A stretch of 64,000 bases of DNA from Callorhinchus milii (taxonomy: Eukaryota): assembly GCF_018977255.1 (NCBI RefSeq), contig NW_024704742.1, positions 43,526,001 to 43,590,000 of the forward strand, read 5' to 3'. Position 1 is the first letter of the stretch. Each line of letters opens with the position of its first letter. Under the pieces are notes generated by a model, which ran no database searches, was not told where the DNA came from, and saw only the letters and a program-made list of their open reading frames with translations. Position numbers and translations under genes: made by a program. This document shows positions 24,401-58,254 of this stretch, one piece after another.

Positions 24401-25066
24401 ATGAAAAGTTCAGTGTTGAGCATGTTACTTTTATTTGGAGCCTTTGTGACATTGCTTGCAGTGCTGCCAGGGAGTTCTGCTCATCCACGAAGCTTTAAGG
24501 ACAAGTGGAAGAAGATAAAAGATTCTGTGTATCATTTCTTCCATCCGTTCACTCCAATGAAAAGTGGTCCCAGGTATGGAATTTGCAGCTTTGAACCCAA
24601 TAGAACTTTGACATCTGGACAGCTGAATATAATAGGATACATCCTCTTCAAGCAAGATGAAGCAAAGAACAAAGTCAAAGGCTTTTTTTCCCTGGATGGT
24701 TTTCCAAAAGTTACATCTGTTCATGCAATTCACATACATCAGTTCGGAGATCTGACCTACGGATGCAAATCCACTAGCAAACACTTCAACCCATACAATG
24801 TTAAACATCCAAATCACCCTGGAGATTTCCCTAATTTGGAGACCAAACATGGAAAAATTAGAGAATTGCTCCATAATCTTCGGGTGACCATGTATGGACC
24901 TGATTCAATTTTGGGCCTCGGGATAGTCTTGCATGAGGGCAAGGATGATTTAGGAAAAGGTGGAAATCCAGAAAGTCTTATTCATGGAAATTCTGGGAAA
25001 GCATTGGCATGCTGTACAATCGCAATCAGCTCTGGCAAATCTTGGGAAGAAATGGTGCCACAATAA
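24401..25066 (+). CDS. SOD3: Extracellular Cu/Zn superoxide dismutase (SOD3)-like paralog 1, 221 aa; all metal ligands kept, Arg186->Ala
   Basis: Signal peptide. The motifs HAIHIHQFGDLTYGC, HFNPYNVKHPNHPGDF, VLHEGKDDLGKGGN and GNSGKALACC align with human SOD3 (HVHQFGDLSQGC, HYNP..HPQHPGDF, VVHAGEDDLGRGGN, GNAGRRLACC). Single-exon ORF; AATAAA at 25062 overlaps the stop. Confidence 0.95.
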   Translation: MKSSVLSMLLLFGAFVTLLAVLPGSSAHPRSFKDKWKKIKDSVYHFFHPFTPMKSGPRYGICSFEPNRTLTSGQLNIIGYILFKQDEAKNKVKGFFSLDGFPKVTSVHAIHIHQFGDLTYGCKSTSKHFNPYNVKHPNHPGDFPNLETKHGKIRELLHNLRVTMYGPDSILGLGIVLHEGKDDLGKGGNPESLIHGNSGKALACCTIAISSGKSWEEMVPQ

Positions 25067-27059
25067 ATATCATGTTTATTTGATTTTTTTAAGAGGTTGA
25101 TCAATTTTATTAATCTGCTTTGTCACCAAAAAGGAAAAAACTTCCAAGTATTGCATGAACAAAAAAGCCAGTTTATTTCTCTACAGTAGTCATATAGTAA
25201 CTTGTTTTATCCCCAAAACTTCATCAAACAATTACAGCCTCTTATTGAGCAGAGAATTACGTTCTGCTTTAAATTCCAATGAGTGGCACTGATCTTAGTA
25301 CTCCGGGACGCTATCTTGTGTGAAGGACACTATATAAATGCAAGTTGTTGTGTAAAATTCTCAATTTTTACAGCTCCTACCTTATTTCAGCAGCCTCATG
25401 ACAAAATCACATTTTGGTACTGCATAGCTGCCTGATGCTATTGCAAAATTAGCACAATGAACTCTAATACCTCTGTACATGCAAAAAAAACTTTTATTTT
25501 ATTTTTTATGATCTCTGCCACCAAATAATGCCAGTGGTGATCGCGAGAGATACCAAATGTCATTAGAAGCCGACCTATACAATGTCCGATTACTTCAAAG
25601 AATTGTGAAAATGTTTTTCCAAATTAAGAATGATTTTAAGAATTTTTTAAATTTCTGCTTCGTCTTACATTTTGAGACAGGGTTAGTTGAGAAAGCAAAC
25701 TAAATGTGTGGATGATTAACTACTGTTTGAAGTTTTGTATTTCAAAAATAGATATTCCTTTTTTTAAAGAAGTACAGTGAAGGCTATAAAATATTTGCAT
25801 TAAAAAAGTGATGGGACTGTGGAACATACTACCAGCATAGTTGGTGAAAAAGAAACTTCAAAGTGTTTCAAAATGAAGCTAATCAAATTCCAGGAAAGAA
25901 AAAGAAATCAGTTATGAGATATTGAGATAAATGTGGCAAAGAAGTCTTTTGAAAAATTTGATTGGTACACTTCTTGGATCGATGGAGTGGTCCTACCTGA
26001 AACTGATTTATTACTAATATGTAGTAACAGAGAAGGACAGCATTCAACCTTCTTGCCTGTTCACCCATTTTATAATCTTGTTCAATCTTTTAATCTCAAT
26101 TTCTCTCTTTTGTTACCCTTTGCTTTACAAGTATCTACCTGTCTCGATTTGAAATATTCACAACATTATATGTCACATTAGTGGCCCTATTGATGGGCCG
26201 ATTCCATCCGAGCTTCCCCTGTCCCCTCCATTTCATCTGGTCCACCCGCTCCCTGTATAACCCATAAATGTTATGTTTCTGGAAGGGAAACACAAAAATA
26301 TTGCTTACGTGGCCCATGGACATTTCTCGAATAGGGCATTTAGCCCTCAGCAGCCAAAAGGTTGGATCTCCTAATATCTGGGTCATTACTTCTTGTCTGT
26401 TTCGAAAGTAAGGATAAAATATTATAATTTTCAGTCTGTGCAAGTGAGTTTGTACATTTTGAAACGGCTGTCACCAATGTGTTGAGTTGTGATGAATGCA
26501 AATTGATTCATACGACTATTTCTAACACTCAAAATGCCATGTGGAAAATATCACGTAGGGAAATGGTCAGTTGTAATGTTGGCGGTGTTTTTGTCAGATG
26601 TTCCAATTAAAGATCTGTCAGTGCTTTGATTTAAAATTTTGCTGAAATAATCTATTGGTAAACTCAAAATTAGACAAAGGCAAAAAACCTTACCATTGGA
26701 AACTTCTATCTTGTGTCCTGAATGGAATGATTTTAAAATGAATAAAAATCTCCACATTTAATGCCTGTGATTTTTTTTTATTTCAAGTGCTCTGGGATGC
26801 TACCCTGGGTGAGGGGTGCTTGGGGAAGACAAGTTTGCAGGGCTATAGGGAGAGAGCAAGGGAGTGGGATTGATTTGGATAGCTCATTCAAAAACCTGGC
26901 ACAGACACAATCGGCCAAATTGCCTCCTTCTGTGCTGTATAATTCTATGATTCTATAATTCTAAATGCAAGTTGTTGTTATTTGATAGTTAATACAGTAC
27001 TTTCATCAAACAACAGTCACTCTTTAGGTGGTGCTTCGGGTAGTTTCCTTTGCCTGGGA

Positions 27060-27590
27060 TATAATTTGCAATCCAGAACTAATTCTTTATAGTTGTAACC
27101 AATAAAGTAGACATGGAAATGCAGTAGATGTAGTGTTTCTGGATTTCCAGAAAGTTTTTGATAAAGCGCCAAACGAGAGGCTTATGACTAAAATAGGGCA
27201 TGTGGAATTGTGCAAAAGCTAATTGAATGGATTAAAGAATGCTTGGAAACCGAAAGCAAAGGGTAGGAGTTGAGGGTATCTTCTCAGGCTGGAAAGAAGT
27301 AGGGAGTGGTGTTCCACAGTTATTTGTGTTAGGACCGCTACTGTTCATCATATACATAAATGATATCGGATTCAGGTATAGCAGATGTGGTGTCAAAATT
27401 CCAGAGGACACCAAGCCGAATGGTAAAAACAGTGAAAGGGATTGCAGAAGAATGCAGGAAGTCATAAGGAGACTAGCAGAATGGGCAGATAGATGAAAAA
27501 TAATGTTTAATGTAGGAAAATGTGAAGTAATTCACTTCAGCTGGAAAAATAAAGAAGTCATCTATAGTCTGGATGGTAGGAATCTGAGAG
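27060..27590 (+). mobile_element. Degenerate CR1-type RT fragment
   Basis: DFQKVFDK and RKQRVGV..SGVPQ..LGPLLFIIYIND. Confidence 0.8.
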
Positions 27591-28523
27591 GAGTTCTCTC
27601 TTGAAAGGGAATAAATAAAGATCAACACCTTATTTCATATATTCATCAATGATGAATTGGACGGTATTGAGAGGAATGGATTTAGTATATCTGCTTCAGC
27701 CATTTCTGATAGAATTGTTGTGGTTCTGTTTGTAGATCATACTGTGCTGCTGGCAAACCTGCCTGGGGATATCATGTGTTGTACCTGTCATCTTAACACC
27801 GAGCTCCCTGGATGCCGGGTGTGTATGGCTTGAAAGGGGAACTTAAAGGCATTGACTGAAAAGTGCAAGTGACATCCATCCCATTGTTGATTTGTATTAG
27901 TTACGGGGGATAATAACATTTGCTTAGACACTGTTTTGCAGGGACATGCTGAGGAGGGGTACATGGCACTCTGGATATTCCTGCCTCTTCACTGACAGCA
28001 AAATACCAATGCAGTTTAAGCTTGTGGGATATATCAGGTTAAGATGTGTTCCAAAGAATTCCCACTCACCATTGTGAGCTGTTGAGCATGCAGTGAAAGG
28101 GTTTTCGTTGGATCATTTGCAGTCCAGAACAAGTGGGGTGGATTTGTGATTAAAAGGGGAACAGCTGCAGGGAGAGTGGACTTTGGTTGGCACTGATCTG
28201 TTGTTCAAATCAACAACAACAAATTACATTTGCATAGCACTTTTCACGACGGGAAGCGCTATACAAATGTATAGATATACCCACCATGAGGAATCAACTT
28301 CATGGTAGACACATTTATTTGTCAAAGTCCCTCAGATAAGGATGATTATCAAGCAATTGGTGTAAGTAAGCAATGGATTGGATTTGGACCACTTGAACGT
28401 AAAGGTGGTTGCCATGTCACAAGCTGTCCTGAATAGGTCCTCCCACCATGTTGAAAGTAGAAAAGCTCATGAGGAAACCCAGAAGCTTGTAACAATAGCT
28501 ACTGGAAGGCATTACTGGCTATA

Positions 28524-57304: not shown

Positions 57305-57375
57305 ACTCTCCCTCCTCCTTTCAGTCGATTGAAACATTATGGAAATAAACGCGATTTCAAAGACAGTCGCTGAAT

Positions 57376-57430
57376 GGACTGAGTGCAAAAACAAAAAAGT
57401 GCAGCGTGCAGCTTTCCACGTCATGTAAGT
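57376..57430 (+). promoter_or_regulatory. Paralog 4 proximal promoter: two MRE cores, degenerate TATA
   Basis: GGACTGAGTGCA at 57376-57387, GCGTGCA at 57404-57410; CATGTAA occupies the TATA position. Confidence 0.65.
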
Positions 57431-57558
57431 CGGATTGTGCACTTACCAGAGCCAGAGCCAGAATCTAAACTTATTATTGCTGAGCTAATCCCAGCACAAC
57501 ACAACGGTTTCAGCTTGCGAACTCGAGGACATGATCTGCGGCTGAAGGAACAGCAAAG

Positions 57559-58254
57559 ATGAAAACTTCAGAGTTTACCTTGTTGTTGTTCGCAGGCGCT
57601 CTTACAGCATGTTTTGCAGAGGTGCATCACCATCTCCTGGAGCGGCGGGGAGTGTTCAAGGACCTGACCAATTTGATTCACCATTATATTTACCCTTTCT
57701 TCTCAAATAAAGGTACCAAGTACGGTGTGTGCATAGTGAAACCCAGCACTGTACTCCAACCGGAGCAGTCAGTTATTAATGGATTCATTCTCTTTAGGCA
57801 AACGCTTCCAACTAAAGACGTGGAAGGTTATTTCCAACTGGAAGGAATTCCCAAATTCTACGCTAAACTGTCTGTCCACCAGTACGGGGAGGTGACTGAT
57901 ACCTGCAATGCCACTGGTCCACAATACAACCCCATGGAGCTCGAACAGGAATATGGAGACATACCCAAAGTTGAAGTGAAACTTGGAAATATTGGACAAT
58001 ATCTCCACAGTCTGCAGTTGACTTTATTTGGTCCTCACTCGATCTACGGTCGTTCAGTGGTGGTGCGTGCTGGTGAGTTGACTGAGGAGAAAGCAGACAA
58101 GAAGGTCCCACTTGCTGGTGTTGGGCATTCAGGAAAGGTACTCGCCTGCTGTACAGTGGCTGTTAGCGACAAGTATCATTGGAAAAAAGTGATGCGAAAT
58201 GATTCTACAAGGGCATCCTATTTTGCCCATAAAATATACAGTCCATTCACTTAA
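57559..58254 (+). CDS. SOD3: SOD3-like paralog 4, 231 aa; most metal ligands lost; SINE-derived C-terminus
   Basis: Signal peptide; motifs LSVHQYGEVTDTCNATGPQYNP, LFGPHSIYGRSVVVR and GHSGKVLACC; AATAAA at 58468. Confidence 0.92.
   Translation: MKTSEFTLLLFAGALTACFAEVHHHLLERRGVFKDLTNLIHHYIYPFFSNKGTKYGVCIVKPSTVLQPEQSVINGFILFRQTLPTKDVEGYFQLEGIPKFYAKLSVHQYGEVTDTCNATGPQYNPMELEQEYGDIPKVEVKLGNIGQYLHSLQLTLFGPHSIYGRSVVVRAGELTEEKADKKVPLAGVGHSGKVLACCTVAVSDKYHWKKVMRNDSTRASYFAHKIYSPFT

Follow-up and report, generated by a model that had tools for sequence, protein, structure and literature searches.

The window analysed here is a stretch of 64,000 nucleotides from the elephant shark Callorhinchus milii, located on chromosome 1 (C1:43526001-43590000). 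It contains four genes, here called c1 to c4, that belong to a tandem family derived from the superoxide dismutase gene SOD3. All four are single-exon open reading frames (ORFs) that run from ATG to stop on the plus strand with start-to-start spacings of 11.7, 12.6, and 8.8 kb, in agreement with the original prediction of four intact SOD3-fold ORFs roughly 9-13 kb apart. The same prediction took these four for the whole array. The array in fact continues downstream of the window and consists of eight intact single-exon SOD3 paralogues and one pseudogene, which span 79.7 kb at spacings of 6.5-13.2 kb, all on the plus strand. The locus is a birth-and-death family grown from SOD3 in which one member is still an enzyme, and its sequence suggests that, after one SOD3 gene became eight and a dead copy, the array came to encode secreted proteins with a new job. 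The window copies, in window coordinates, are as follows.

24401..25066, plus strand: c1, a SOD3 paralogue of 221 residues with 7/7 metal ligands and Arg186 replaced by Ala (K185-A186); from the ORF list, Pfam, and the alignment to 2jlp
36139..36723, plus strand: c2, the most diverged copy, 194 residues, 0/7 ligands, four Cys kept; from the ORF list, Pfam, and alignment
48759..49502, plus strand: c3, 247 residues, 6/7 ligands (H163 replaced by S), R185-S186, a putative Leu/Pro-rich signal peptide, and a GC content at third codon positions (GC3) of 0.85
57559..58254, plus strand: c4, 231 residues, 2/7 ligands (H98 and D127), K185-V186, electrostatic loop replaced, and a 19-residue C-terminal extension

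Family assignment and active-site residues

The Pfam Sod_Cu profile (PF00080, curated cut-off 28.9 bits) matches c1 (E 1.1e-28, 100.7 bits), c3 (3.8e-23, 82.8 bits), and c4 (1.5e-14, 55.0 bits) above its threshold. c2 scores 22.9 bits (E 1.3e-4), under the cut-off, so that sequence alone does not place it in the family. Among solved structures, c1 matches human SOD3 best (2jlp; E 2.1e-45, 158 bits over one 164-residue stretch). Single-domain SOD1 chains score about 88 bits, and a tandem SOD1 fusion (6dtk) totals 161 bits across two domains. Features of the SOD3 lineage include a 2jlp score above that of single-domain SOD1, a conserved C45-C190 pair, a hydrophobic N-terminus, and predicted N-terminal helices. 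In each of c1 to c4 the protein begins with a hydrophobic stretch, whose best 10-residue mean on the Kyte-Doolittle scale is 2.0-3.8. A tblastn search of the window with the copies returns these four sites and no fifth.

Residues are numbered as in human SOD3 from the 2jlp alignment, and ligands are read off alignments of the copies. Copper is bound by H96, H98, H113, and H163, and zinc by H113, H121, H124, and D127. Among the window copies, only c1 carries the full set of four Cu histidines and the Zn ligands. The alignments give 7/7, 0/7, 6/7, and 2/7 ligands for c1 to c4, and the graded loss of the active site that had been predicted is borne out, as are the retention of the four SOD3 cysteines (equivalents of C45, C107, C189, and C190) in all four copies and the absence of Arg186 from each. 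Position 186 is instead Ala in c1, Pro in c2, Ser in c3, and Val in c4. Arg186 corresponds to Arg143 of SOD1, which steers superoxide to the copper, and mutants of the SOD1 arginine keep a fraction of activity. c1 has an intact electrostatic loop VII, and c3 a mostly intact one. In c4 other sequence replaces the loop, whereas c2 has lost it through a 17-residue deletion and has a shortened Zn loop as well.

The polybasic C-terminal tail is absent from c1 to c4 and from c6 to c9. The lack of an RKKRRR-type tail had been predicted for the window copies, and this observation stands, though it does not set them apart: the heparin-binding tail is also missing in c9 and in 10 of the 11 elasmobranch SOD3 sequences read, and it therefore does not define the SOD3 lineage in cartilaginous fish.

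Downstream copies and genomic position

A search of the window's own assembly with c1 finds nine places, seven of them intact copies on C1; the other two are a broken copy containing a TAA stop and an unrelated short match on C4. As a genome query c2 matches itself alone, and its addition brings the intact copies to eight, with amino acid identities between copies of 22-68%. The members beyond the window, in chromosome coordinates, are as follows.

C1:43591695-43592321 (about), plus strand: psi5, a broken SOD3 copy adjoining c4, just outside the window; from the assembly search
C1:43598538-43599158, plus strand: c6, an intact copy; ORF
C1:43605027-43605758, plus strand: c7, an intact copy; ORF
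C1:43618234-43618887, plus strand: c8, an intact copy; ORF
C1:43629475-43630131, plus strand: c9, an intact copy, canonical SOD3; ORF

The last gene of the array, c9, has 7/7 ligands and Arg186 (..GARLACC..) and is the sole copy of the eight with the whole catalytic set. It is 100% identical to K4G9Y1_CALMI, whose 90% cluster also holds AFM89989, AFK11273, AFM89814, AFM90391, and XP_007887238.2. The first four of these, which are GenBank entries, presumably derive from cDNA clones, and c9 is the SOD3 enzyme with cDNA support. When c8 is read from its second Met, it corresponds to XP_042197795.1. Both c7 and c8 have 7/7 ligands with Pro at position 186, and c7 also has Gly replacing C190; c6 keeps Arg186 and has Arg in place of His163. 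Lys or Arg occupies position 185 in c1, c7, and c8. Across 30 canonical SOD3 sequences (c9 and 29 from sharks, a ray, bony fishes, and tetrapods), conservation is 100% at each of the seven ligand columns and 97% at Arg186.

A dibasic pair (RR; RKR in c9) lies just before a Lys-rich amphipathic N-terminal helix in c2, c3, c4, c7, and c9, at window positions 36139-36290 (c2), 48759-49000 (c3), and 57559-57720 (c4). This pair may serve as a convertase site, or it may just belong to the helix. At this position c7 has a Gly/Arg-rich insert.

In mammals, a single SOD3 gene lies between DHX15 and CCDC149. The array occupies the same place, because exons of CCDC149 lie downstream of it and an exon of DHX15 lies upstream:

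C1:43436046-43436216, minus strand: DHX15 exon, the genome's best OB_NTP_bind exon, 114 kb upstream of c1
C1:43660230-43668250, minus strand: CCDC149 exons matching Pfam CC149, beginning 30 kb downstream of c9

All four CCDC149 exon ORFs tested match Pfam CC149 (E 3e-6 to 2e-21, profile positions 1-201), and the best PDB matches of the DHX15 exon are to DHX15 itself (E 1.8e-35). The synteny through to CCDC149, which the original prediction proposed to check, is found, and the array is a tandem SOD3-derived family at the ancestral locus.

Unit anatomy and the shared promoter block

The recognisable unit is about 0.9 kb long and consists of a promoter and 5' untranslated block of about 190 nt, mostly with a TATA box, followed by the single-exon coding sequence (CDS). 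Collinear blastn homology between units is confined to the interval between roughly -190 and +690, counted from the ATG, and the remaining matches are dispersed repeats at non-matching positions. The shared promoter of the original prediction is real: in the window copies, a common block that comprises the boxes GAGTGCAAA and AGTGCAGTGTGC as well as a TATA box is found 130-240 nt before the ATG. The two boxes are conserved, and the TATA box sits at about -135 to -150 in most copies. In window coordinates, and as placed by an upstream alignment of the eight copies together with motif positions, the blocks are as follows.

24212..24263, plus strand: c1 promoter block with a GAGTGCAAA box, a AGTACAGTGTGC box, and TATATAA at -144
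35946..35998, plus strand: c2 promoter block with GAGTGCAGA, AGTGCTGTGTGC, and TATATAT/TATATAA
48515..48598, plus strand: c3 promoter block, in which (TA)n(TG)n is inserted at the TATA box
57381..57409, plus strand: c4 promoter boxes GAGTGCAAA ... AGTGCAGCGTGC, with a degenerate TATA box

The two-box composite occurs at seven of the eight intact genes, and the 144 kb examined contain two further loose matches on the plus strand and none on the minus strand. Over the 200 nt before the ATG, the mean excess identity relative to shuffled sequence is 0.07-0.14 for c1, c2, c4, and c6 to c9 and 0.03 for c3, which is lower because a microsatellite is inserted there. The regions from -500 to -300 and the 200 nt past the stop are at shuffle level in nearly all pairs. 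For c2, the excess identity of the upstream 200 nt is 0.10, as much as for c1, versus 0.02 for its CDS. Each of c1, c2, and c4 exceeds shuffles upstream in six of seven pairs with intact copies, with z values of 4-11 for c1 (c1-c3, 0.9), 3.8-15 for c2 (c2-c3, 1.9), and 2.4-6.2 for c4 (c3-c4, 0.4).

psi5 still has the promoter block, 80% identical to that of c8. A bacterial promoter and terminator scan, which is not applicable to a vertebrate gene, gave no match. ORFs resembling the reverse transcriptase of long interspersed nuclear elements (LINEs), labelled by eye, lie at 14237-17185 (minus strand) and 43968-44465 (plus strand), with many short ones throughout the window, and copies of a short element, with the recurring translation ..TQSMTVCGTLLCAIGC.., are dispersed on both strands between the SOD3 units. 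Together they account for the non-collinear blastn matches between units.

Phylogeny

A maximum-likelihood tree of 31 sequences places the 11 elasmobranch SOD3 proteins together in one clade with support of 98/98. Two groups of elephant-shark copies are recovered, (c7,c8) with support of 99/99 and (c1,(c3,c4)) with 93/89. In this phylogeny with other SOD3 proteins, of the kind that the original prediction proposed, the deep order of the elephant-shark copies is poorly supported. Monophyly of the eight copies appears in 9% of bootstrap trees, and a single elephant-shark clade is not rejected by the approximately unbiased test (p=0.38). The end branches of c2, c3, and c4 are 3.6, 1.4, and 1.3 long, versus 0.40 for c9. 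At least two separate losses of His163 took place, one in c6 and the other in the c3/c4 lineage.

Word-indexed searches, which are incomplete (c8's own RefSeq protein was missed), recovered no orthologues of c1 to c4 from other species. A protein search with c1 gives four matches, and a c1-c4 profile gives six, three of which are C. milii models. Against 1.84 billion representatives, c2 has four matches, and the sole close one is a chimeric model containing c2 itself.

Predicted fold of c2 and c4

AlphaFold2 (AF2) models of c2 and c4 were built on a 37-row alignment of SOD3 relatives. The mean predicted local distance difference test score (pLDDT) is 78.7 for c2 and 79.5 for c4, with barrel blocks above 90. 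The top Foldseek match in the PDB is human SOD3 (2jlp) for both models, with E 2.7e-7 and a target-normalised template modelling (TM) score of 0.60 for c2, and E 4e-15 and TM 0.83-0.86 for c4. The best PDB matches of both are SOD3 and SOD1 with a probability of 1.00, and the cysteines are present. As modelled, c2 and c4 keep the eight-stranded Cu/Zn SOD beta-barrel with an intramolecular disulfide.

Selection, composition, and frame integrity

Pairwise ratios of nonsynonymous to synonymous substitution rates (dN/dS, or omega) were calculated by the Nei-Gojobori (NG86) and Yang-Nielsen (YN00) methods, and dS exceeds 1 or is undefined in all pairs but c7-c8. A maximum-likelihood branch model of the Goldman-Yang (GY94) type, fitted to 217 codon columns of the eight copies and limited by saturation and by the composition of c3, gives a family omega of 0.50. 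Terminal-branch omega is significantly below 1 for c1 (0.40, p=7e-4), c3 (0.18, p=1e-10), c9 (0.44, p=0.004), and c6 (0.54, p=0.03), and the SOD-domain columns alone give the same picture. c1 and c3 are under purifying selection. c2 evolves at a neutral-like ratio, and c4 is not separable from neutral. Of the four copies for which purifying selection was originally predicted, the branch tests therefore support it for c1 and c3, and they do not support it for c4 (0.59, p=0.10) or c2 (1.1).

The GC3 of c3 (0.85) compares with 0.39-0.51 in the other seven copies, and its first and second codon positions are near 0.5 GC. This composition looks like that of a constrained protein encoded in DNA that is being pushed towards GC. 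The patch around c3 (48759-50537) is GC-rich. A 12-nt repeat of 5.3 copies at 48812-48875 falls within its signal-peptide codons and gives the Leu/Pro run, a (CA)n tract of about 1 kb (49552-50537) starts 50 nt past its stop, and an Ala-rich ORF of 188 residues (48791-49357) overlaps it in another frame.

Frame integrity separates the degenerate copies from the pseudogene. In a neutral, substitution-only simulation with fitted branch lengths and the c9 CDS as the starting sequence (4000 runs each), the probability that no stop arises is 0.0003 for c2, 0.0008 for c3, and 0.0035 for c4. The alternative frames of the c2 to c4 ORFs contain 2-16 stops. psi5 is about 80% identical to c6 at the DNA level over 589 aligned bases, yet its frame changes three times or more and is interrupted by an in-frame TAA; their local alignment contains 19 gaps, mostly not multiples of three. 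c2, c3, and c4 are far more diverged than psi5 and have no frame lesion, and all of their gaps relative to the family are whole codons. psi5 thus serves as the array's internal calibrator for decay.

Losses in the two most degenerate copies are concentrated at the active site. Of 67 columns conserved in at least 85% of canonical sequences, 15 belong to the catalytic apparatus (ligands, Arg186, and loop VII) and 52 to the scaffold. c2 keeps 0/15 catalytic versus 23/52 scaffold positions (Fisher p=0.0013), and c4 keeps 2/15 versus 32/52 (Fisher p=0.0012). No such contrast is present in c1, c3, or c6 to c9, and c1, c7, and c8 each keep 14/15 catalytic-apparatus positions with an intact electrostatic loop.

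Origin and likely function of the array

The best explanation of the locus is that SOD3 was duplicated repeatedly without leaving its ancestral site between DHX15 and CCDC149, giving a same-strand tandem array with c1 to c4 as its upstream half. Apart from the promoter block and the CDS, the sequence between units has decayed to noise. The catalytic apparatus was lost stepwise, leaving c9 alone as a full enzyme. c1, c7, and c8 lost Arg186 alone, and their residues make them probable Cu and Zn binders with poor dismutase activity. c3 and c6 lost the Cu ligand His163 but still have the other three Cu histidines and a Zn site; the missing histidine is the same one that is missing in domain II of CCS. 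Both are probably Cu-free and inactive, because CCS domain II, which has three of the four Cu histidines, can neither bind Cu nor dismutate superoxide, as stated in the passages on CCS in a review of SOD derivatives (PMC13017621). Judged by their residues, c2 and c4 cannot be dismutases, because nearly all ligands and the electrostatic loop are lost. On this reading, all copies retain a hydrophobic N-terminus followed by the N-terminal helix, together with the two disulfide pairs and the core of the beta-barrel.

We put the probability at about 60% that c3, c4, and c2 are secreted non-catalytic proteins, that is, pseudo-enzymes kept for an extracellular role. This role would most likely be ligand binding or partnering with other SOD3-fold subunits through the retained helix and barrel. 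From these features we infer secretion and inactivity, and the case for selection on c2 and c4 is one that we infer from their open frames, lack of frameshifts, conserved promoters, and active-site-focused losses.

Several observations weigh against this interpretation. The omega of c2 (1.10) is indistinguishable from neutral (p=0.74; twice the log-likelihood difference 0.11) and above background (p=0.003), and that of c4 (0.59) is not significantly under 1. Synonymous sites are saturated and even the enzyme c9 gives 0.44, which makes all of these ratios rough. The column classes of the Fisher tests were chosen after the alignment had been seen, making the p-values generous, and the loop deletion of c2 is one event that was counted as seven columns. 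The AF2 models lean to the SOD3 fold, since the input alignment is made of SOD3 relatives. The view of c1, c7, and c8 as weak enzymes is drawn from mutagenesis of the equivalent SOD1 arginine. Finally, the exact c2, c3, and c4 proteins are absent from a collection of 15 billion proteins, and the only database models that hold c2 or c3 sequence are chimeric predictions.

Some of these points would also fit c2, c4, or both as unprocessed pseudogenes that are drifting, with frames open by luck or through recent death. Their omega values allow it, all or most of their catalytic residues are gone, neither exact protein is in the collection, and c2 has no relative anywhere searched save the chimeric model of itself. 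The array does yield pseudogenes, as psi5 shows next to c4, and a very recent death after a long functional life is compatible with the data. We nevertheless regard this explanation as unlikely. Open frames are improbable under substitution alone (P 0.0003 for c2 and 0.0035 for c4), and the gaps of both genes are all in frame, whereas psi5, with DNA only about 20% diverged, has already changed frame at least three times. The promoter block is kept beside non-coding DNA that is at shuffle level, and scaffold positions are retained far more often than catalytic ones.

It is improbable that the copies are ordinary SOD3 isozymes, all or most of them active, in which other residues such as Lys or Arg 185 substitute for Arg186. 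c1, c7, and c8 fit this description best, given their complete ligand sets, intact electrostatic loops, near-complete catalytic apparatus, and basic residue at 185, and c1 is under purifying selection. Against the explanation stand c2 and c4, with 0/7 and 2/7 ligands and no electrostatic loop, and c3 and c6, which lack one Cu histidine, a state that abolishes Cu binding and activity in CCS domain II according to the same passages of PMC13017621. The seven ligand columns are, moreover, invariant in all 30 canonical SOD3 sequences. An assembly artefact of collapsed or expanded haplotypes or mis-joined contigs can be dismissed as extremely implausible, since nothing specific favours it beyond the general proneness of tandem arrays to assembly errors, the copies differ far beyond allelic levels (22-68% amino acid identity, with distinct flanks and repeats), and c1, c8, and c9 exactly match independently deposited protein records.

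The interpretation of c3, c4, and c2 as retained pseudo-enzymes can be taken further, and here we are doubtful. Chimaeras may have built a secreted, fast-evolving 'dead SOD3' family in which the Cu-less c3 and c6 and the ligand-free c4 and c2 would act outside the cell as pathogen-binding or metal-binding defence proteins. Alternatively, they could join the one active SOD3 in assemblies, as subunits without catalysis of their own or as chaperone-like partners, making contact through the retained N-terminal helix and the barrel interface. The conserved promoter and the fast-changing c2 in a kept frame, with omega near 1, would then reflect diversifying selection and not decay.

Comparison with known SOD-derived proteins

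The array proteins share with vertebrate SOD3 (2jlp) their best sequence and fold match, a hydrophobic N-terminus, an N-terminal helix, four cysteines, a single-exon CDS, and the location between DHX15 and CCDC149. They differ in that there are eight genes and not one, and the full catalytic set is confined to c9. Arg186 is missing from c1 to c4, and between one and seven ligands are missing from c2 to c4. There is no polybasic heparin-binding tail, a difference that extends to c9 and most elasmobranch SOD3.

SOD-derived proteins without copper or zinc are already known and include CCS, fungal Cu-only SODs, animal CSRPs, and oyster dominin. Like CCS domain II, c3 and c6 have the beta-barrel, the disulfide, the Zn site, and three of four Cu histidines. 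CCS, however, is an ancient intracellular protein with a fused Atx1-like domain and CXC tail, whereas the array proteins are stand-alone, have predicted signal peptides, and are derived from SOD3 within one vertebrate lineage.

Oyster dominin is described in passages of PMC13017621 and PMC6530089 as an extracellular SOD-like protein that has no copper site or activity and acts in pathogen recognition. In anatomy, c4 and c2 are vertebrate counterparts of dominin and its relatives (Cg-EcSOD, cavortin, and pernin). Dominin has an independent molluscan origin and does not derive from vertebrate SOD3, and it is an abundant purified plasma protein, whereas c2 to c4 are known here from sequence alone. 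If the 'dead SOD3' family exists as outlined above, it would give vertebrates their first counterpart of oyster dominin or CCS domain II.

CSRP, also called SOD4, is likewise an SOD-derived extracellular protein, and some of its domains lack a metal site according to the parts of PMC10416458 that treat it. The repeats of CSRP are domains of one polypeptide that lack the Zn site and loop VII and mostly keep Cu, whereas the repeats of the array are separate SOD3-type genes of which the degenerate ones lose Cu first. Elsewhere in the elephant-shark genome, a 748-residue open frame at C7:4388313-4389638 (plus strand) contains three consecutive Sod_Cu domains, which fits the three-domain SOD4/CSRP family described for anamniotes in portions of PMC10416458 and PMC13017621.

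No description of a SOD3 array in cartilaginous fish was found in full-text literature searches, whose scope excludes subscription journals and supplements, and the original prediction's statement that none was known is upheld to that extent. Trees in the relevant sections of PMC7913737 and PMC10416458 use one elephant-shark SOD3 sequence, and a term search of the 2026 review of SOD derivatives (PMC13017621) does not return the word 'SOD3'. This one vertebrate locus displays every intermediate, from the full enzyme through loss of Arg186 and loss of one Cu histidine to loss of everything, and would serve as a natural series on the re-use of an enzyme scaffold. If the degenerate copies are not expressed, the locus is a well-preserved example of birth and death.

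Database records and other loci

The locus also bears on annotation, as public gene models splice neighbouring copies. All three UniRef gene models of C. milii that were examined for these copies are faulty: one joins c2 to c3, one joins c6 to c7, and one gives c1 foreign ends. The exact c1 protein is in NCBI, and UniRef has a truncated version. In the collections searched, c4 has no protein record, and c2 and c3 are present only inside chimeras. Of twelve sequencing runs listed for the c4 stretch, six contain part of it and none is recorded as RNA, a result that carries no information on expression.

Between window positions 3300 and 6100 is a GC-rich (0.54) region of simple repeats with long low-complexity open frames on both strands, in which no gene was recognised. 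At C4:41122766-41165649 (plus strand), a SOD1-like exon (Sod_Cu positions ~66-110) is matched five times in 43 kb with other SOD1-like exons between, and this locus may be a second tandem array, of SOD1.

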